A stretch of DNA of 32,000 nucleotides from Arthrobacter sp. OAP107 (GTDB taxonomy: Bacteria; Actinomycetota; Actinomycetes; Actinomycetales; Micrococcaceae), in the NCBI RefSeq assembly GCF_040546765.1, contig NZ_JBEPOK010000001.1, forward strand, positions 4,390,373 through 4,422,372, written 5' to 3'. Positions 4,298 to 14,861 of this stretch are shown here, piece by piece. A program made the position numbers and the translations under genes. A model generated the notes under the pieces. It was not told the origin of the DNA, searched no databases, and saw only the letters and a program-made list of their open reading frames with translations. The first letter of the stretch is position 1. The number at the start of each line of letters is the position of its first letter.

Positions 4298-4960
4298 GTG
4301 CGGTACGTTGTGCAAATGGACTTCGGCAATCCGGACACGTGGAGCACGGCGATCTACTTCTGGATCATCCCCGCTGTCCTCGGCGATGCCATCTTTCCGC
4401 CGATCCCGTCCGAGATGGTGCTGATCACGGGCGGTGCCCTGTCCGCCGCGGGCCGGGCCAACCTGTTCCTGGTCGGCGTCCTGTCCGCCACCGCCTCGTG
4501 GCTAGGCGACATGGTGGTGTTCCAGCTGTTCAAGCGCCGCCTGAGCCACGTCCTGGACCGCTGGACATGGGGCCGGAAAGTCCACCGCGGCATCCACGAG
4601 GCCATCGCCAAGGCAGGCCGGTCCTCCGCGTACGGCACCATCATAGGGGCCCGGTTCATCCCGGGAGGACGGCTTGCGACGTCGGCCGCCGCGGGCATCG
4701 CCGACGTCTCCACCCGGGGCTTCAGCCTGTGCGCCGGGCTGGGAGCCGTGCTGTGGGCGACGTGGCTCGTGGGCCTCGGCTACTTCACAGGCTCCACAAC
4801 GCGGCTGCCGTTCTGGGCGAGTTCGCTGATTGGGGTGGCGGTCGGCCTGGTGATCGGCGCCGTCGTGGGCCTGATCGTCACCCGCCGGCGCGGCGACAGA
4901 TCCCCGGTGGACGAACCCGGCAGCGCCTCCGGGCCGGGCACTCAAGCTCCGGGCGCCTAA
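4298..4960 (+). CDS. DedA / VTT-domain family integral membrane protein
   Basis: Multiple hydrophobic segments. DedA-like features seen: FPPIPSEMVLITGG, and RFIPGGR in the loop region. The start could be GTG 4298 or ATG 4316. Confidence 0.7.
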   Translation: MRYVVQMDFGNPDTWSTAIYFWIIPAVLGDAIFPPIPSEMVLITGGALSAAGRANLFLVGVLSATASWLGDMVVFQLFKRRLSHVLDRWTWGRKVHRGIHEAIAKAGRSSAYGTIIGARFIPGGRLATSAAAGIADVSTRGFSLCAGLGAVLWATWLVGLGYFTGSTTRLPFWASSLIGVAVGLVIGAVVGLIVTRRRGDRSPVDEPGSASGPGTQAPGA

Positions 4961-4986
4961 GCCTTAGAAACCTAAACACCTATGCC

Positions 4987-5292
4987 CTAAACGGGCGCCC
5001 AGCGGCCGCGGCTGCGGCGGAGCACCGAAAGCGAGCCTGTCAGCGCAACGCGTTCGACGGCGTCGCGCATCACGGCTGCCGATTCCCGTGCCGCGCTGTT
5101 CTCACCGTTGTATTCGGTGGGCTCCACGAGGAACCGCAGATTCAGTTGCGGCACACCGCCCGCCAGCTCCAGCTGGTGCGACTCCACATGGTGCCGCGAC
5201 CGCAGCGCCTCGACTGCGGTGTCCATCACGGCTTCGGGAGGGTTGCCCGGCTTCAGCCCGGTGATCTTGAGTCTGGTCTGGAAGGACGGCAT
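4987..5292 (-). CDS. Hypothetical protein, 101 aa, with no recognised domain
   Basis: The ORF has strongly G/C-biased third codon positions, typical of real genes here. It is divergent from hypA. No motif recognised. Confidence 0.45.
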   Translation of the reverse strand: MPSFQTRLKITGLKPGNPPEAVMDTAVEALRSRHHVESHQLELAGGVPQLNLRFLVEPTEYNGENSAARESAAVMRDAVERVALTGSLSVLRRSRGRWAPV

Positions 5293-5330
5293 CCTTCAAC
5301 CCTAGCGCCGCGGGCGAAAGACGCAGCACG

Positions 5331-5370
5331 CACGGACACGGCACCCACGGACACGGCGCGAACGGACACC
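5331..5370. promoter_or_regulatory. Three direct ACGGACAC repeats at 15-nt spacing upstream of hypA. Candidate regulator-binding array.
   Basis: CACGGACACGGC (5331-5342), CACGGACACGGC (5346-5357) and AACGGACACC (5361-5370). The array lies about 130 nt upstream of the hypA ATG (5498), in the divergent intergenic region. Confidence 0.3.
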
Positions 5371-5497
5371 TGTGGCCCCAAAAATCCGGCTCCGCAGGGC
5401 CTCAACTGTCCGTTCGCGCCGGGGTGGGGCGCACGGGTTATGCGGACGGTTGCGTTTTGTCCGGCGCGAGCCTATCTTGGCAGGAAGGGGCGCGATT

Positions 5498-5827
5498 ATG
5501 CACGAACTCTCCATCACGCAGGGCCTTGTCGACGCCGTTCTCTACCGGACAGGCGAACGGCCGGTCACGGCGGTCAACCTGAGGATCGGTCCCCTTTCCG
5601 GCGTGCTGGCTGATGCCGTGCGCTTTTGTTTTGACGTGGCAGTGGCGGGCACTCCGCTGGCCGGCGCGCGGCTGCAGATCGAGGCGCCGGAAGGCCGGGG
5701 ACGGTGCCGCAGCTGCCAGGACGAATTCAAGCTGAACGATCCCATCCTGCTTTGCCCTTGCGGAAGCGCGGACGTCGAAGTCCTCAGCGGCCGTGAGCTG
5801 ATGCTGGTGTCCGTGGAGGTGGCATAG
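5498..5827 (+). CDS. hypA: Hydrogenase nickel-insertion protein HypA
   Basis: N-terminus MHELSITQGLVDAV carries the MHE Ni-binding motif. Zinc-site cysteines are CRSC...CPCG. The RBS GGAAGGGG (5483-5490) precedes the ATG at 5498. The listed ORF start at 5372 is upstream junk. Confidence 0.9.
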   Translation: MHELSITQGLVDAVLYRTGERPVTAVNLRIGPLSGVLADAVRFCFDVAVAGTPLAGARLQIEAPEGRGRCRSCQDEFKLNDPILLCPCGSADVEVLSGRELMLVSVEVA

Positions 5828-5830
5828 GAC

Positions 5831-6772
5831 ATGTGTACAACATGCGGCTGCGGAGACGAGGCCGGCACCCGCATTTCAAACCTCGCAGGCGACCTGCAGA
5901 CACCCGGGCACGGGCATCTGCACAGCCATACGGATGAGCACGGCCACACCTTCACACACGAGCACCCGGACTCCACCGATCACCTCCACGTCCATGCAGA
6001 CTCCCATGAGCACAACCACGGGCATACGAACGGGCACCACCCTGCGGATCCGGGCACGGAGACCATCGTGCTCGAACAGAACCTGCTGGCCAAGAACGAC
6101 CTGTTGGCCGCCACCAACCGCGGCTGGCTGGCCGGCCGGGGAGTCCGGGCGCTCAACGTCATGAGTTCACCGGGCGCCGGCAAGACCACCCTCCTGGTCC
6201 GCACGCTGACGGAGCTTGGCGGGCGCCTCAACGCAGGCGTCATCGAAGGTGACCAGGAGACGTCCCTCGACGCTGACCGCATCCGCGCCACCGGGCGCCC
6301 GGTCATCCAGATCAACACCGGAGCGGGCTGCCATCTCGACGCCGACATGCTCCGGCACGGCCTTGATGCGCTGTCCCCGGAGCCGGGCTCCACGGTCTTT
6401 ATCGAAAATGTGGGCAACCTCGTCTGCCCCGCGCTTTTTGACCTCGGCGAAACAGCCAAGGTGGTGATCGTCTCGGTAACGGAAGGTGATGACAAACCCC
6501 AGAAATATCCGCACATGTTCATGGCAGCCGACCTCGTGATCGTCAACAAGTCGGACCTGCTCCCCTACGTCGACTTCGACGTCGACCAGTGCCTGCGGCG
6601 CATCCGGCAGATCAATCCGCGGGCCGAAGTCCTCACCCTGTCCGCCACCACCGGCGAAGGCCTCGCCGCCTGGTACGGCTGGCTCGACGGCGCCGCCTCC
6701 CATGTGGCGGCGCCCACCCCCGGGGTTGCCCGGCCAGAACCCCTGGCTGGTTCCCTGACAGAAGCACACTGA
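5831..6772 (+). CDS. hypB: Hydrogenase nickel-incorporation GTPase HypB with a His-rich tract
   Basis: N-terminal MCTTCGCG is the CxxCGC high-affinity Ni site. A 44-residue stretch (5909-6040) holds 17 His. P-loop [19 protein letters not shown], and NKSDL G4 motif. Confidence 0.92.
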
Positions 6773-6802: not shown

Positions 6803-7861
6803 ATGCCTACGGAAACTTCCCTTAAGGCCGAAGAAGCCCTTATCCACGTGCTGTGGATCAACGCAGGGCTCAGTTGCGACGGCGACTCGGTGGCGCTGAC
6901 CGCAGCCACCCAGCCGAGCGTCGAGGAGATCGTCCTCGGGGCGCTGCCCGGCCTGCCGAAGATCGCCATGCACTGGCCACTGATCGACTTTGAATGCGGC
7001 CCGCAGGAAGGGGCAGACGATTTCCTGGAGTGGTTCCGCAAGGCGGACCGCGGCGAACTGGAACCGTTCGTGCTGGTGGTGGAGGGCTCCATCCCCAACG
7101 AGAAACTCCACGACCCCGGCGGCTACTGGTGCGGCTTCGGCAATGACCTCGAGACCGGGCAGCCGATCACCACCAGCGAATGGCTGGACCGTCTGGCTCC
7201 CAAGGCCACCGCCATCATCGCCGCCGGAACCTGCGCCACCTACGGCGGCATCCACGCCATGGCGGGCAACCCGACCGGAGCCATGGGCGTACCGGACTAC
7301 CTCGGCTACGACTGGAAGTCCAAGGCCGGAATTCCCATCGTGTGCGTGCCCGGATGCCCGATCCAGCCTGACAACCTTTCTGAAACCATGACCTACCTGC
7401 TCTACCAGGCCACGGGCCAGGCACCGATGATTCCGCTGGATGAGGCACTGCGTCCCACGTGGCTGTTCGGCAAGACGGTCCACGAGGGCTGCGACCGGGC
7501 CGGCTACTACGAGCAGGGCGACTTCGCCACCGAGTACGGTTCCCCCAAGTGCATCGTCAAGCTCGGCTGCTGGGGTCCCGTGGTGAAGTGCAACGTGCCC
7601 AAGCGCGGCTGGATGAACGGCATTGGCGGCTGCCCCAACGTCGGCGGCATCTGCATCGGCTGCACCATGCCCGGCTTCCCGGATAAGTTCATGCCGTTCA
7701 TGGACGAGCCTCCCGGCGGCAAGCTGTCCACCAGCACCATCCGCCCCTACGGCTCCGCCATCCGGACCCTGCGGGGCATCACGACGCACACCCTGGACCA
7801 GGAGCCCAAGTGGCGCCGGCCCGGACCCGAGCTCCTCACCGGGGCCCGGCGCACCTGGTAA
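6803..7861 (+). CDS. hhyS: [NiFe]-hydrogenase small subunit, group 1h/5 type, with no Tat signal
   Basis: LWINAGLSCDGDSVAL, with CDGD in place of the usual CxGC. Cys-rich Fe-S ligand regions: GTCATYGG, CVPGCP, GCDRAG, CIVKLGCWGP..KCN, GGCPNVGGICIGC. There is no RRxFxK twin-arginine leader. RBS AAAGAGG lies upstream. Confidence 0.9.
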   Translation: MPTETSLKAEEALIHVLWINAGLSCDGDSVALTAATQPSVEEIVLGALPGLPKIAMHWPLIDFECGPQEGADDFLEWFRKADRGELEPFVLVVEGSIPNEKLHDPGGYWCGFGNDLETGQPITTSEWLDRLAPKATAIIAAGTCATYGGIHAMAGNPTGAMGVPDYLGYDWKSKAGIPIVCVPGCPIQPDNLSETMTYLLYQATGQAPMIPLDEALRPTWLFGKTVHEGCDRAGYYEQGDFATEYGSPKCIVKLGCWGPVVKCNVPKRGWMNGIGGCPNVGGICIGCTMPGFPDKFMPFMDEPPGGKLSTSTIRPYGSAIRTLRGITTHTLDQEPKWRRPGPELLTGARRTW

Positions 7862-7889: not shown

Positions 7890-9684
7890 ATGACGTCAAC
7901 AATTCCCATGGGTTCCGGAAGCGGAACGGGCAACAACAACCTGGTGGAGATGAACTGGGACCCCATCACCAGGATCGTCGGCAGCCTCGGCATCTACACG
8001 AAAATCGATTTCGAGAACAACCAGGTCGTGGAGTGCAAGAGCACGTCCTCGATCTTCCGCGGCTACTCGCTCTTCATGAAAGGCAAGGACCCGAGGGACG
8101 CGCACTTCATCACCAGCCGTATCTGCGGGATCTGCGGCGACAACCACGCGACCTGCTCCTGCTACACGCAAAACATGGCCTACGGCGTCAAGCCGCCGAA
8201 CCTGGGTGAGTGGATCGTCAACCTGGGCGAGGCCGCCGAGTACATGTTCGACCACAACATCTTCCAGGAGAACCTGGTGGGCGTGGACTACTGCGAAAAG
8301 ATGGTCTCCGAAACCAACCCTGGTGTCCTGGCCAAGGCGGAGAACACCAGGGCGCCGCATGAGGCCGACCACGGCTACCGGACCATCGCGGACATCATGC
8401 GCTCGCTGAACCCCTTCACCGGCGAGTTCTACCGCGAAGCGCTCCAGGTCAGCCGCGCCACCCGCGAAATGTTCTGCCTCATGGAAGGCCGCCACGTGCA
8501 CCCTTCCACGCTCTACCCGGGCGGCGTGGGGACAGTGGCCACCATCCAGCTGATGACGGACTACCTCACCCGGCTCATGCGCTACGTCGAGTTCATGAAG
8601 AAGGTCGTCCCGATGCATGACGACCTGTTCGATTTCTTCTACGAGGCCTTGCCGGGCTACGAGCAGGTGGGGCTGCGGCGGACGCTGCTGGGCTGCTGGG
8701 GCTCGCTGCAGGATCCGGACTACTGCAACTTCGAGTACAAGGACATGACCGAGTGGGGCCGGAAGATGTTCGTCACGCCGGGCGTGGTGGTGGACGGCAA
8801 GCTGGTCACCACCGACCTGGTGCGGATCAACCTGGGCCTGCGGATCATGCTCGGCTCCTCGTACTACGAGGACTGGGAAGGCCAGGAAATGTTCGTCACC
8901 CACGATCCCCTGGGCAACCCGGTGGACCGCAGGCACCCCTGGAACCAGCACACCAACCCGCGGCCGCAGAAGCGCGACCTTTCAGACAAGTACAGCTGGG
9001 TCATGTCCCCGCGCTGGTTCGACGGCCAGGACAACCTCGCGCTGGACACCGGCGGCGGCCCGCTGGCACGGCTCTGGGCCACGGCGCTCGCCGGACTCGT
9101 GGACATCGGCTACCTCAAGGCCACCGGCAGCAGCGTGCAGATCAACCTGCCCAAGACCGCGCTGAAGGGACCCGTCACCTTCGAGTGGAATATCCCGCAG
9201 TGGAGCAACACGCTCGAACGCAACCGCGCCCGGACCTACTTCCAGGCCTACGCCGCGGCTGCTGCACTCCACTTCGCGGAAAAGGCCCTCGAGGAAATCC
9301 GCGCCGGCCGCACCAAGACCTGGGAAACGTTCGAAGTCCCCGATGAAGGCATCGGCTGCGGGTTTACCGAAGCGGTCCGCGGCGTCCTGTCCCACCACAT
9401 GGTGATCCGTGACGGCAAGATCGCCAACTACCACCCCTACCCGCCCACCCCCTGGAACGCCAGCCCCACCGACTCCAACGGCGTGGCCGGCCCCTATGAG
9501 GATGCGGTCCAGGGACAGCCGATCTTCGAGGAGAATGACCGGGAGCACTTCAAGGGCATCGACATCATGCGCACCGTCCGCAGCTTCGATCCCTGCCTGC
9601 CCCTGCGGTGTCCACATGTACCTGGGCAACGGGCAGACGCTGGACATGCTGCACTCCCCCACCCAGACCCTGACCGGCGAGTAG
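7890..9684 (+). pseudogene. hhyL: [NiFe]-hydrogenase large subunit, group 1h/5, interrupted by a 1-nt insertion. Frame 0 covers 7890-9602 and frame +1 covers 9604-9684. The restored product would be 597 aa.
   Basis: The L1 motif TSRICGICGDNH (8112-8147) is intact. At the L2 motif the DNA reads AGC TTC GAT CCC TGC CTG CCC C TGC GGT GTC CAC ATG. Frame 0 gives SFDPCLPLRCPHV... followed by Arg/Pro-rich read-through to 9902. Skipping one C of the run 9600-9603 gives SFDPCLPCGVHMYLGNGQTLDMLHSPTQTLTGE*, stop 9682-9684. The start ATG at 7890 lies 29 nt after the hhyS stop. Confidence 0.9.
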
Positions 9685-9687
9685 GCC

Positions 9688-10803
9688 ATGCTCGGCGGGG
9701 ACCGGCCGCCGCTGCAGAACGGCGACCAGATCGATACACTCCTCGACGCCCTCGGCGCCGGCGGGGCCGTGGCCCGCGGCCGGGCCGAGGACCTGGTCCG
9801 CCAGGTGACAGACCTCTACGGCGCCGGACTCCAGCGGATCATGGAAATCCTGCAGGCCCAGGGAAAGCTCGACGACGGCACGCTGGAAGCGCTGACCGCT
9901 GACAGCCTGGTGGCCGGGCTCCTGGTGATCCACGGGCTGCACCCCCAGTCGATGGAGGCACGGGTGGCCGCGGCGCTGGACAGCGTCCGGCCCTACCTGG
10001 GCTCCCACGGCGGCGACGTGGAACTGGAAGGCATCAGCCCCGACGGCGTGGTGCGGCTCAAACTGCTGGGCACCTGCCAGGGCTGCCCGTCGTCGTCCGT
10101 CACCCTCAAGTACGCCGTCGAGGAGGCCATCCAGAACGCAGCCCCGGAAGTGACGGCGATCGACGTCGTCGAGGCGGAAAAGCAGCCGGGCTCCCCGGCG
10201 CTGATTCCGGTGGACTCGCTGCTGGTCCGGGTGAACAATCCGGCGGGCGGCACGCCGGCGGAATCCTGGCACGACATGTCCGGCGGCACGTGGGAACCTG
10301 TTCCGGAGGTCGCAGGGCTCGAACCCGGGGAGGTGGCAGGTTTCCTCGTCGGCGGCTACGCGGTGCTGGCCTGCCGTACCGGGCAGGATATCTACGCGTA
10401 CCGCGACTACTGCCCGCGCTGCACCGGTTCGATGGCCGGCGCCGTGCTGCAGCGCGCCCTCGCGGCGCCTGTTGGCGGAGGCCTGCTCACCTGCCCCACA
10501 TGCCGCGGCCACTTTGACGTGAGACGGGCGGGCATGTGCCTGGAGGACAAGGACCTGCACCTGGAGCCGCTTCCGCTGCTGGTCCGGAACGGCGTGATGT
10601 CCGTGGCGGTCCCGACGGCGTCCCTGCAGTCCGTGCCGCTGCCGGTTGCCCCGGCGCCGGCTACCACGGCGGCCGTGACGCCGGCGGCCGTGACACCGGT
10701 GCAGGCTCTCCCGCTGGTGACGCCGGCCGGGCTGGAACCCGTCCCGGCGCCGGCAGCCGCCATGGCGCCGGAACTGCAGGCAGCCGCGGGGCAGGACCGC
10801 TGA
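9688..10803 (+). CDS. NifU-domain putative Fe-S protein (HhyE-like) with a C-terminal CxxC...CxxCxxH module and a Pro/Ala/Val-rich tail
   Basis: NifU C-terminal-type region VRPYLGSHGGDVELEGISPDGVVRLKLLGTCQGCPSSSVTLKYAVEEAI. CPRC at 10411-10422 and CPTCRGH at 10492-10512. The ATG lies 3 nt after the hhyL stop. Confidence 0.75.
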   Translation: MLGGDRPPLQNGDQIDTLLDALGAGGAVARGRAEDLVRQVTDLYGAGLQRIMEILQAQGKLDDGTLEALTADSLVAGLLVIHGLHPQSMEARVAAALDSVRPYLGSHGGDVELEGISPDGVVRLKLLGTCQGCPSSSVTLKYAVEEAIQNAAPEVTAIDVVEAEKQPGSPALIPVDSLLVRVNNPAGGTPAESWHDMSGGTWEPVPEVAGLEPGEVAGFLVGGYAVLACRTGQDIYAYRDYCPRCTGSMAGAVLQRALAAPVGGGLLTCPTCRGHFDVRRAGMCLEDKDLHLEPLPLLVRNGVMSVAVPTASLQSVPLPVAPAPATTAAVTPAAVTPVQALPLVTPAGLEPVPAPAAAMAPELQAAAGQDR

Positions 10804-10804
10804 C

Positions 10805-11578
10805 ATGAACGTGGAGAACGGAGGAGGTACAGGGCACGGCCCGGGGACCGGCCAGGCCAGCGGCGCCTTGCCGGTGGCCTTACTGCGGCGGATTTCCGCG
10901 AACCGGCCCGCTCCCGCCGCCGGGGAATGCTGCGAAATGTGCGGCGAACCGATTCCCGACGCACACCAGCACGTGGTGGACCTGGAGAGCCACGCGATGA
11001 TGTGCACCTGCCGGCCCTGCTACCTCCTCTTCACCGACGCCGGCGCCCATATGCGCTACCGATCGGTGCCTGACCGGTACCTCTCCTTCCCCGACTTCGA
11101 TCTCGGTCCGGGGCAGTGGGACGAACTGGAAATTCCGGTGGGTCTCGCGTTCTTTTTCCGCAGCTCCAAACTCGGCCGCACGGTGGCCTTCTACCCGGGC
11201 CCGGCCGGGGCCACGGAATCGGAACTGCCGCTGGCCGCGTGGGACGCGGTGCTGGCCTGCAACCCGGCCCTTGGCTTGGCTGCGCCGGACACCGAGGCGC
11301 TGCTGATCCGCGGCCCGGGGCCGGGCCGGGCCGCCGCGGACTGCCACCTCGTTCCCGTGGACGCGTGCTACGAGCTCGTGGGCCGGCTGCGCCGCCTCTG
11401 GCGGGGGTTCGACGGCGGCCAGGAGGCACGCGACGAGCTCACCGCTTTCTTCGAGCGGATCGGCCGCCGCAGCGTTCCGGCCCCGGCAGAGTCCGGCAGC
11501 GCAGCTTCCGGCAGCCCGGACCCCGGCAGCCCTGCTTCCGGGAACGGTGCATCACGCAGCACGGGAGGCTTCCGGTGA
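10805..11578 (+). CDS. Conserved hydrogenase-cluster protein of unknown function (as I recall it, DUF5947-like), with a Cys-rich N-terminus
   Basis: ECCEMCGEPIPDAHQHVVDLESHAMMCTCRPCYLLF, then EIPVGLAFFF...VAFYPGPAGATE. The ATG lies 1 nt after the upstream stop. The family name is from memory and is not verified. Confidence 0.7.
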   Translation: MNVENGGGTGHGPGTGQASGALPVALLRRISANRPAPAAGECCEMCGEPIPDAHQHVVDLESHAMMCTCRPCYLLFTDAGAHMRYRSVPDRYLSFPDFDLGPGQWDELEIPVGLAFFFRSSKLGRTVAFYPGPAGATESELPLAAWDAVLACNPALGLAAPDTEALLIRGPGPGRAAADCHLVPVDACYELVGRLRRLWRGFDGGQEARDELTAFFERIGRRSVPAPAESGSAASGSPDPGSPASGNGASRSTGGFR

Positions 11579-12228
11579 CAGAGCTTTCCTTCGCCGTGCT
11601 GGAGATCCGGCCCGAACCCTACGCAGCCGCGCCCCAGCTGACGGCCAGGCTGCAGGTGACGGAGGGCACCGGCGCCGTGGTGCACGCTGTGGCGCTGCGC
11701 TGCCAGGTCCGGATCCTGCCGCAGCGCCGCGGCTACGTGCCCGAGGAGGAGACGGGACTGCTGGATCTCTTCGGAGACCGCGGCCGCTGGCCCACCACGC
11801 TCAAGTCATTCGTCTGGATGCAGTGCAGCACCATGGTGCAGGGCTTCACCGGCAACACCGAGGTGGACCTGCCGCTGCCCTGCACCTTCGATTTCGACGT
11901 GGCCGCCGCCAAGTACCTGCACGCCCTGCGCGACGGCGAGATACCTCTGGAGCTGCTGTTCTCCGGAACCGTCTTTACCAGGGGGCAGACGGGGTTCACG
12001 GTGGAACAGGTGCCATGGGACCTCGAGGCGTCCTACCGGCTGCCCGTCGCCGCCTGGCGCAGCCTGATGGACCAGTATTTCCCCAACGCCGGATGGATCC
12101 GCCTGGACCGCGACGTCCTGGCAGCCCTCGCCCGGTACAAGTCCGCGCGCGGCCTCACGTCCTGGGAAGCCACGATGGAGAAACTGCTCGCCGAGGCCAC
12201 CGCCGATGTGTCCGGGGAACTGCCATGA
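11575..12228 (+). CDS. Conserved hydrogenase-cluster protein of unknown function (as I recall it, DUF6084-like), 217 aa
   Basis: The GTG start overlaps the upstream stop (GTGA, 11575-11578). Sequence begins VTELSFAVLEIRPEPYAAAPQLTARLQV... The upstream part of the listed 370-aa ORF is Arg/Gly/Pro junk overlapping the previous gene. Confidence 0.7.
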   Translation: MTELSFAVLEIRPEPYAAAPQLTARLQVTEGTGAVVHAVALRCQVRILPQRRGYVPEEETGLLDLFGDRGRWPTTLKSFVWMQCSTMVQGFTGNTEVDLPLPCTFDFDVAAAKYLHALRDGEIPLELLFSGTVFTRGQTGFTVEQVPWDLEASYRLPVAAWRSLMDQYFPNAGWIRLDRDVLAALARYKSARGLTSWEATMEKLLAEATADVSGELP

Positions 12229-13595
12229 ACACCAGCCTGGCCCTTGCCCGCGCAGTCGCCGACGCCGTCCTCTACGAGGGCTACCTGCTCTACCCCTACC
12301 GCGCCTCCTCCCAGAAGAACCAGGCCCGCTGGCAGTTCGGTATCCTTGGTCCCCCGGGCGCCGCGGCGGACGGCAGCGGGGAGGAACCGTCCATGTCCGC
12401 CGACTGCCTGCTGGCCCCAGGGACGCAGGCCGGGCTGGAAATCCATTTCCGCTTCCTGCAGCTGCAGACCCGCACGGCAGAAAAAGCGGACGACGGCGGA
12501 GGGTTCACTCCCGTGGACAGCCTCGCCGTGGGCGGTGCGAACTGGCTGAGCTGGGACGAGGCAGTCGAGCAGGAAAACACCTTCGGCCCCTTCTCCGTGG
12601 CCCGGCTCCGGGCCGGGCTGGTCCTCCCCGTGGATGTTCCCGAGGGACTCGACGTCGAGGAACTCAAGGACGACGCCGGGAGGCCGGCCGGCCGACTGGT
12701 GCGCCGCCGTCGTGCTCTCAGCGGTGAACTGCGGCTCAACGCCGCCGAAGATTCCGGCGGGCTGCTGCGGCTCAGCGTCACCGCGGCCAACACGGCCGGT
12801 CCCCTGCCTGCCGGGAACCGGCAGGCAACCATTGCGGCCTCCTTCATCGGCGCGCACATGCTGCTCGGCGTGCGGGACGGGGATTTCGTCTCGCTGCTGG
12901 ACCCGCCGGCGTGGGCGCAGCCGGCAGCACGGCTGTGTTCCCAGCACCGCTGCTGGCCCGTGCTTGCCGGGCCCCAGGGCCAGACCGACGTGCTGCTGAT
13001 CTCACCGATCATCCTTTACGACCACCCCGCCGTGGCCCCGGAAAGTTCGGTGGCACTGTACGACTCCACCGAGATCGACGAGATCCTTACACTGCGGGTG
13101 CTGACGCTGACTGACGAGGAAAAGGCCGAGGCGCGGGCGACGGATCCGCGGGCTGCCGCCGTCATCGACCGCTGCGAGGAGATGTCGCCCGAGGACCTCC
13201 AGCAGCTGCACGGCGCCCTGCGGAACCCGCACGCGTTCGCCGCGGACCCGGCCGACGCGTGGACCACGGCCAGGGAGGACGTTCCCTGGTGGAATCCCGA
13301 GGCGGAGGCCAGCGTCCGGCCGGACATGGACGCCGTCGTGATCAACGGCGTCCCGGTGGCGCGCGGCAGCCGCGTGCGCGTGCACCCGAAGCGGCGCGCC
13401 GACGCCCAGGACCTGTTCTTCGGCGGCCAGACCGGGCGGGTCACCAGCGTGCATTTCGACGTCGACGGCAGCACCCACGTCGGGCTCGTGCTGGAACAGG
13501 ATCCGGCGGCTGATCTCCATGAGGGCTACGGCCGGTCCTTCTACTATGCGCCCGACGAACTGGAACCGCTGGACGGAAAGGAACCCCCGCAATGA
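12225..13595 (+). CDS. Conserved hypothetical protein, 456 aa, in the hydrogenase cluster
   Basis: The ATG overlaps the upstream stop (ATGA, 12225-12228). Sequence begins MNTSLALARAVADAVLYEGYLLYPYRASSQKNQARWQFGILGP... Third-position GC bias holds throughout. No recognised catalytic motif. Confidence 0.7.
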   Translation: MNTSLALARAVADAVLYEGYLLYPYRASSQKNQARWQFGILGPPGAAADGSGEEPSMSADCLLAPGTQAGLEIHFRFLQLQTRTAEKADDGGGFTPVDSLAVGGANWLSWDEAVEQENTFGPFSVARLRAGLVLPVDVPEGLDVEELKDDAGRPAGRLVRRRRALSGELRLNAAEDSGGLLRLSVTAANTAGPLPAGNRQATIAASFIGAHMLLGVRDGDFVSLLDPPAWAQPAARLCSQHRCWPVLAGPQGQTDVLLISPIILYDHPAVAPESSVALYDSTEIDEILTLRVLTLTDEEKAEARATDPRAAAVIDRCEEMSPEDLQQLHGALRNPHAFAADPADAWTTAREDVPWWNPEAEASVRPDMDAVVINGVPVARGSRVRVHPKRRADAQDLFFGGQTGRVTSVHFDVDGSTHVGLVLEQDPAADLHEGYGRSFYYAPDELEPLDGKEPPQ

Positions 13596-13711
13596 AGGCA
13601 ATAGGAATGGCCACTGTTTCCGTGCTGGCAGCGATGGCCCTCTGGGGCATCTACGTCGGGATCCGCGCAGTTCCGGATATCCGGCGGTACATGAAAGTGC
13701 GGCGGATGTGA
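13592..13711 (+). CDS. 39-aa single-pass membrane micro-protein, absent from the supplied ORF track
   Basis: My own translation: MKAIGMATVSVLAAMALWGIYVGIRAVPDIRRYMKVRRM*. The ATG overlaps the upstream stop (ATGA, 13592-13595). Its stop overlaps the GTG of the protease gene (GTGA, 13708-13711). One hydrophobic helix precedes a basic tail. It may correspond to the small 'DUF6893-like' proteins of actinobacterial hydrogenase loci, from memory and unverified. Confidence 0.55.
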   Translation: MKAIGMATVSVLAAMALWGIYVGIRAVPDIRRYMKVRRM

Positions 13712-14227: not shown

Positions 14228-14533
14228 ATGTGCCTAGGAATTCCCGGCAGGGTCGTTGAACTCCTCGAGGGCTACGGCGGCCAGCTCGCACTGGTCGATG
14301 TGGCCGGAGTGCAGCGGAAGATCAATATTGGGCTGCTGGATGAGGGGCCCCTGGAACCCGGTACCTGGGTCCTCATCCACATGGGCTTCGCGCTGGAACG
14401 CGTGGACGCCGCGGGCGCGGAACAGGCCATGGACGGGCTGGAACTGATGGGCCGCCCGGCGGACACCGCGCCCGGACCCCAGCCGGCACAACCACCACAA
14501 GGAGAGCAGCATGTCACCCACGAACCAGCCTGA
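14228..14533 (+). CDS. hypC: Hydrogenase assembly chaperone HypC/HupF family, with a Pro/Gln-rich C-terminal tail
   Basis: Canonical N-terminus MCLGIPGRVVEL, followed by VDVAGVQRKINIGLL and WVLIHMGFAL. Confidence 0.88.
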   Translation: MCLGIPGRVVELLEGYGGQLALVDVAGVQRKINIGLLDEGPLEPGTWVLIHMGFALERVDAAGAEQAMDGLELMGRPADTAPGPQPAQPPQGEQHVTHEPA

Positions 14534-14861
14534 TCCCGCCGACAAGGAACAGGGCACCTCTTCGGGCACAGCACCCGGTACGGCGCGGGCGTTCGGCAGC
14601 GAACCGCCGCTGAAGGAACCCGCCCAGCCCGGAGCAGACGAAACTCCGGAGGACGCGGCACCGGCGCCCGCCGGCGTCGGCGTCAGCACCACCCGCAGGG
14701 GCGAGGACGTCGTCAAGGAGGAGGGCTCCGAACCGGGACGCGAGCACACGGGCACCGACGAATCCCCTGCCGGCAGGCCAACCGGCGAGTCGTCCGCCCG
14801 CGATGCGACCGCCGTCAAGAGCCCCGAGCATCCCGACAGCGCGGCGCCACAGTCACCCTAG
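14511..14861 (+). CDS. Low-complexity acidic Pro/Glu/Gly/Ala/Ser/Thr-rich protein, 116 aa, predicted to be disordered
   Basis: A strong SD, AAGGAGAG (14499-14506), lies 4 nt before the ATG at 14511. It overlaps the hypC 3' end by 23 nt. No Cys and no hydrophobic core. Whether it codes is uncertain. Confidence 0.4.
   Translation: MSPTNQPDPADKEQGTSSGTAPGTARAFGSEPPLKEPAQPGADETPEDAAPAPAGVGVSTTRRGEDVVKEEGSEPGREHTGTDESPAGRPTGESSARDATAVKSPEHPDSAAPQSP

Follow-up and report, generated by a model that had tools for sequence, protein, structure and literature searches.

Why does the gene for the large subunit of a high-affinity hydrogenase leave its reading frame 27 codons before its proper end, and is the break carried by the cell or only by the deposited sequence? 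The question is raised by a stretch of 32,000 nucleotides from Arthrobacter sp. OAP107, referred to here as the window, in which the gene hhyL contains a run of four Cs on the forward strand (positions 9600–9603), made up of the Pro571 codon CCC and one surplus C, where all compared relatives have three bases. We favour a real insertion of one base, recent in the extreme and without any programmed role, that has left OAP107 with a fresh null allele, and consider the chances that this is correct to be about even. Both a sequencing or assembly error and a recent mutation fit all of our findings, with a slight preference for the real allele.

Reading frame and identity of the hhyL product

The window reads TGC CTG CCC CTG CGG TGT C at positions 9594–9612, which bears out the extra C described in the first-pass annotation of this DNA. 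As also noted there, the frame opened by the ATG at 7890 runs into the next gene: its translation (7890–9902, stop codon at 9900–9902) gives 670 amino acids, as deposited, and reads ...MRTVRSFDPCLPLRCPHVPGQRADAG... around the site. The part of this frame that belongs to hhyL comprises codons 1–571, up to DPCLP (7890–9602, + strand; PF00374, E = 7.5e-61; 1069 bits against the structure 5aa5_C), and closes with ...MRTVRSFDPCLP, after which LRCPHVPGQRADAG... begins an Arg/Pro-rich sequence that extends to the stop, the junction being ...SFDPCLP joined to LRCPHV.... This out-of-frame read-through (9603–9902, + strand) consists of 99 codons and a stop, is not conserved protein sequence, and retrieved no homologue in a protein search among cluster representatives. 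The over-long open reading frame (ORF) overlaps the following gene, which starts at ATG 9688, by 215 nt.

Deletion of one C in silico gives a product of 597 amino acids that ends in ...RSFDPCLPCGVH MYLGNGQTLDMLHSPTQTLTGE, with a TAG stop codon at 9682–9684, so that the expected SFDPCLPCGVH is indeed restored; the tail MYLGNGQTLDMLHSPTQTLTGE that follows His575 has 22 residues, not the 23 counted previously. The displaced 3′ end of the gene, encoding CGVH, the 22-residue extension and the TAG, therefore lies in the +1 frame (9604–9684, + strand), as indicated by amino acid conservation and by the GC content at third codon positions (GC3), which stands at 0.91 for frame 0 as far as 9599 and at 0.96 for the +1 frame across 9604–9684. 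Viterbi segmentation of the whole window by GC3 places a frame switch on the same strand at 9609/9610, and this is the sole same-strand switch in the window that has no stop/start junction to explain it. The frame switch is thus a real coding signal, and hhyL holds the only frame break in 32 kb.

Once repaired, the hhyL product is identified by its sequence as the large subunit of a group 1h (formerly group 5) [NiFe]-hydrogenase. It matches HofG of the actinobacterial-type hydrogenase of Ralstonia eutropha (5aa5_C) over residues 16–575 (E = 0, 1069 bits). This enzyme, and none of group 1a–e or group 2, is its nearest relative of solved structure, as the second-best match reaches 163 bits and Huc (7utd) only 129. 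The L1 motif (RxCGxCxxxH) is present as RICGICGDNH at residues 77–86 (nt 8118–8147). The L2 motif (DPCxxCxxH) is missing from the 0 frame and appears, as DPCLPCGVH at residues 567–575, only after the C is deleted, in agreement with the earlier statement that the fourth active-site cysteine and the protease cleavage site are lost. The solved 5aa5_C chain stops exactly at ...DPCLPCGVH, in agreement with a cut behind the histidine that takes off the C-terminal extension, and the maturation endopeptidase encoded at 13708 would be expected to cleave HhyL after His575.

The 670-residue product is identical to WP_354262442.1 and MET3936023.1 of Arthrobacter sp. OAP107, encoded on a contig of 5,389,831 bp. 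The extra C is thus part of the deposit (GCA/GCF_040546765.1; IMG 2931867202; GOLD Gp0588953) and not something added in the window.

Conservation of the proline codon and age of the lesion

The first-pass annotation had suggested comparing orthologous hhyL genes at this codon. Our comparison covered 95 loci, namely 80 species representatives from a genome collection, four further loci (L081–L084), and contigs from metagenomes, metagenome-assembled genomes (MAGs) and Logan. In each of the 95 the proline codon consists of three bases and the frame is intact; the insertion is found in none. DPCLPCGVH is in frame in each of the 80 species representatives, which use CCG (46), CCC (29), CCT (3) or CCA (2) for the proline. 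Arthrobacter sp. ISL-65, which shares 93% nucleotide and 98% amino acid identity, has the same bases around the site minus one C. Closer still are contigs retrieved by exact look-up of the HypC of the window and of a conserved 101-residue neighbour; with 95–97% nucleotide identity these fall within the species as its limit is commonly drawn, though not within the same strain, and all have three Cs and no frame break at the site. The HhyL proteins called in them have 577–597 residues, the shorter ones reflecting a different called start or truncation by the contig end.

By chance, a cysteine and a histidine recur in the frameshifted product (DPCLPLRCPH, 9588–9617), with the spacing CxxxxC as opposed to the invariant CxxC. 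Because DPCLPCGVH is kept in all of the species representatives, it is very unlikely, as far as conservation can tell, that this variant is functional.

The same comparison bears on whether the gene could be phase variable, a contingency switch in which reversible slippage of the C tract toggles hydrogenase production within the population, as had been put forward earlier. The lesion does sit in a homopolymer and loss of a single base would restore hhyL. However, the tract has only four bases, and three in the functional state, while known contingency tracts have about seven bases or more; the longest G/C run anywhere in the window is five. In the relatives, moreover, the run is C3 or is interrupted (CCG, CCT or CCA), and length polymorphism is seen in 0 of 95 loci. 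We regard such a switch as most improbable.

Substitutions were polarised with outgroups and assigned to the OAP107 branch. Over the 3′ 1.4 kb of hhyL, this branch carries 32 synonymous and 3 non-synonymous changes; the whole gene, with another outgroup, gives 43 and 6, a ratio equal to that of the sister branch. The 27 codons after the site encode a protein sequence identical to that of relatives (100% against the representatives P0001 and P0122), with one synonymous difference from ISL-65. As read from these counts, strong purifying selection has acted on hhyL practically up to now. None of the signs of a decaying pseudogene was found, there being a single lesion, no relaxed selection and intact neighbours. 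Because of the 32:3 ratio, the conserved tail and the lack of any other frame break in 32 kb, the insertion is, on the sequence record, either brand new or not real; in evolutionary terms it would be instantaneous.

Recoding, mutation or consensus error

A further suggestion was that +1 ribosomal slippage makes hydrogenase output a matter of translational fidelity. Here the P-site tRNA-Pro would move from the CCC at 9600–9602 to the CCC at 9601–9603, and a programmed or at least physiologically meaningful shift would set the level of HhyL. Perfect +1 re-pairing is possible on CCC-C, the downstream +1 frame is fully preserved, and CCC followed by C is a documented error-prone site for tRNA-Pro, with programmed shifting at prfB reaching 30–100% and ordinary sites staying below 0.003% (PMC4519876). 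However, the shift site occurs in 0 of 95 relatives, where the proline codon is freely synonymous, so no slippery site is conserved. The A-site codon in the 0 frame is CUG, the commonest leucine codon of the window (550 of 899) and neither a hungry nor a stop codon. Stimulatory elements were likewise not found: there is no Shine–Dalgarno-like GGAG, GAGG, AGGA or GGGG in 9560–9606, the RNA on either side folds with no greater stability than shuffled sequences do (z = +0.93 and +0.50), and an Rfam scan gave only a chance-level match (E = 0.97). A tRNA scan found no tRNA genes in the window. In addition, in-frame CCC-C is present 31 times in the 8149 codons of ordinary window genes, nine of these being CCC-CUG and one of the nine lying inside hhyL itself at 8907. 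The string must accordingly slip only rarely of itself and cannot be an efficient shift site in OAP107. A regulatory role for slippage thus has very little to commend it. We give similarly scant credence to a leaky allele, in which the four Cs are real and tRNA-Pro slips spontaneously at a rate of at most 1%, so that Hhy output would depend on fidelity (m1G37 or EF-P status).

Among the readings that had been offered for this site, a sequencing error and a recent mutation both remain compatible with the data, and phase variation and +1 slippage are not supported. The insertion that we favour could have arisen by replication slippage on the short C run, converting CCC to CCCC. The 0-frame product would then carry 99 junk residues in place of the final cysteine ligand of the Ni-Fe centre, the site of cleavage at CxxH and the extension of 22 residues, and the large subunit would be unable to bind the metal centre or to be processed by the 13708 endopeptidase. 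The locus would no longer provide the strain with high-affinity oxidation of H2, with a chance +1 slip at CCC-C involving at most ∼1% of ribosomes. We infer with only a slight lean, at roughly one chance in two, that the extra C is present in the DNA of the cell and not just in the assembly. The lean comes from the addition of the base to a run of only three and from the behaviour of other G/C runs in the window, as no frame break is tied to any of the other 196 runs of four bases or 42 runs of five.

Alternatively, the extra C may be a long-read consensus (polishing) error that exists only in GCA/GCF_040546765.1, the cell having CCC and a functional hhyL; this is a serious competitor, whose probability we place a little below even. 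A change of one nucleotide in the length of a G/C homopolymer is the characteristic residual error of high-GC assemblies made from PacBio data alone. For such actinobacterial assemblies, 205 residual indels and 70–335 differences (single-nucleotide polymorphisms and indels) per 7–9 Mb have been reported, nearly all of them in G/C homopolymers and described as corrected mostly by insertion of a base (PMC4832174, PMC6923854). We read this as bases missing from the PacBio consensus, though the wording is not fully explicit.

Several observations weigh against a real insertion. The reported rate for PacBio-only assemblies could by itself account for roughly one lesion of this kind in each window. 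The sequence was deposited by the Joint Genome Institute (JGI), with the platform stated only generically as PacBio Sequel II or NovaSeq, and the 5.39-Mb length of the contig is taken here to indicate long reads. Decay is seen nowhere, neither in the 32:3 ratio nor in the tail or the locus, and hhyL is intact in every one of the 95 relatives; with a ratio of non-synonymous to synonymous rates (dN/dS) well below 0.1, a surviving real frameshift is less likely in this gene. Similar C-terminal frame breaks occur in further HhyL entries deposited from draft or MAG assemblies: of the best 120 cluster representatives of HhyL, three have broken tails (P0002, 899 residues; P0073, 746; P0103, 618). Independent assemblies of the site were also not recovered. 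Cluster look-ups of the frameshifted HhyL, HhyS, HypB, DUF5947 and phosphoenolpyruvate carboxylase returned the NCBI record alone, and two scans of metagenome DNA, in which either three or four Cs were allowed, gave no independent copy. Against an artefact, the error would have to consist in the gain of a base by a run of just three, while PacBio consensus errors, as we understand them, are mostly missing bases and favour longer runs. Furthermore, the ∼27 kb of coding sequence contains no further frame break, and hence the assembly is not error-ridden.

The breaks in P0002, P0073 and P0103 (frame break or stop loss) lie at other positions, after an intact CGVH, and P0002 and P0073 run into the NifU-family gene and break again inside it, a pattern that looks like that of indel-rich draft or MAG assemblies. 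Exact-protein look-ups found no contig encoding the 670-residue product or HhyS beyond the NCBI record, and the repaired 597-residue HhyL and the 371-residue NifU-family protein were absent from the protein collection searched. An Illumina contig (L092; Logan SRR23892420, 938 nt) shares 99.9% identity with window positions 5098–6016, with one C/T difference at 5156, and retains a Nextera mosaic-end adapter, AGATGTGTATAAGAGACAG, at its 5′ end. Its near-identity indicates that short-read data of OAP107 or of a near-clone are public; the contig itself, covering 5098–6016 only, ends before the hhyL site. OAP107 (DSM 113524) is a switchgrass-rhizosphere isolate and a member of a shared synthetic community (PMC9765266), for which metagenome, metatranscriptome and metaRibo-seq data have been reported (bioRxiv 10.1101/2023.05.11.540389).

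The hydrogenase locus and its known counterparts

The locus is arranged in the order hypA, hypB, hhyS, hhyL, a NifU-family/Rieske-like gene, DUF5947, DUF6084, a gene for a 456-residue protein of unknown function, DUF6893, the protease gene and hypC, all on the + strand. Apart from hhyL, every gene is full length against its orthologues, in line with the earlier description of an otherwise intact locus. The nickel insertion proteins HypA (5498–5827) and HypB (5831–6772) are intact, as is the small subunit HhyS (6803–7861; PF01058 and PF14720), which is 97% identical to that of L081 over 352/352 residues. DUF5947 (10805–11578) and DUF6084 (11575–12228) are followed by the 456-residue protein (12225–13595), which has no Pfam domain above threshold, and by the 39-residue DUF6893 protein (13592–13711), the stop of which overlaps the protease start (ATGTGA). 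The endopeptidase gene lies where it had been placed, with a GTG start at 13708, and extends to 14214; its product belongs to the HupD/HybD/HycI superfamily (TIGR00072, 118 bits; cutoff 47). The HypC protein (14228–14533), also intact, is identical to that of same-species metagenome contigs. A 116-residue ORF of no known function (14511–14861) overlaps the end of hypC; like the 456-residue and DUF6893 proteins, it is conserved at the same position in relatives.

Both deposited starts of the NifU-family gene (9688–10803; Pfam) are too late, at ATG 9841 in GenBank (MET3936024.1, 320 residues) and at GTG 9805 in RefSeq (WP_354262443.1, 332 residues). Its orthologues align from ATG 9688 (371 residues), 4 nt past the restored hhyL stop, and tblastn aligns from residue 1 at 9688. 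The gene was annotated with a truncated 5′ end because the hhyL ORF is over-long.

The nickel transporter gene nicO is not in the window, where only ∼205 bp (5293–5497) separate the 101-residue ORF from hypA. A nicO gene (412 residues, 6251–7489 in L081) adjoins hypA in L081–L083, and NicO-coding sequence lies upstream of hypA in L002–L005. It is also absent from ISL-65, L084 and the same-species contigs, including the closest relatives with an intact hhyL, and its absence is accordingly a trait of the lineage and no sign of locus decay. Similarly, hypD, hypE and hypF lie outside this locus in relatives too. The 101-residue protein (4987–5292, − strand; no Pfam domain) has its gene between hypA and a VTT/DedA gene in every Arthrobacter locus examined; its composition is atypical, and the GC3 model labelled 4915–5493 as non-coding. 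Further upstream, between an aminotransferase gene and rluA (1258–2572, − strand), an ArsR/HTH_20-family regulator (1943–2572) and a gene for a ∼230-residue protein without a Pfam match are present in the same-species contigs L093–L098 and absent from L081–L083.

The lesion is an ordinary one, either a recent knockout or a sequencing error, and involves no new mechanism; neither outcome alters what is known of hydrogenases or of recoding. The strain belongs to a widely shared model rhizosphere community of 16/17 strains. If the insertion is real, the Arthrobacter of this community is without high-affinity H2 scavenging from this locus, and metabolic models built on gene presence would be wrong. 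In the case of an artefact, a wrong hydrogenase of 670 residues (WP_354262442.1) stands in RefSeq and GenBank next to a neighbour truncated at its 5′ end (WP_354262443.1, MET3936024.1), and both need correction.

Young strain-specific frameshifts are common in bacterial genomes, and the pseudogenes that they produce resemble the OAP107 case in having a single lesion, in one strain, within an intact operon. OAP107 hhyL differs in that it has neither a second lesion nor relaxed selection, which places it at the youngest possible end of this class or suggests that it is unreal. Residual homopolymer indels of PacBio-only assemblies share with it the one-base G/C change, the single long-read contig and a conserved gene broken without other decay; in contrast, the base is added in OAP107 and the run is short (three to four), whereas the reported cases are dominated by differences corrected by insertion. 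The site also has in common with prfB-type +1 frameshifting and error-prone CCC-C decoding a P-site CCC that can re-pair in the +1 frame with the C that follows, but it lacks the slow A-site codon, the Shine–Dalgarno-like stimulator, the conservation and the avoidance of the same string elsewhere.

In its gene content, the locus agrees with other Arthrobacter hhy loci, which have the same order of small subunit, hypA/B/C, endopeptidase and NifU/DUF5947/DUF6084 genes. In the L1 motif, the repaired L2 motif and the 1069-bit match, its large subunit agrees with the group 1h proteins HhyL of Mycobacterium smegmatis and HofG of R. eutropha (PDB 5AA5). It is only the deposited 0 frame that departs from them, lacking the second cysteine of CxxC, the histidine of the cleavage site and the 22-residue extension, and carrying a 99-residue out-of-frame tail instead.

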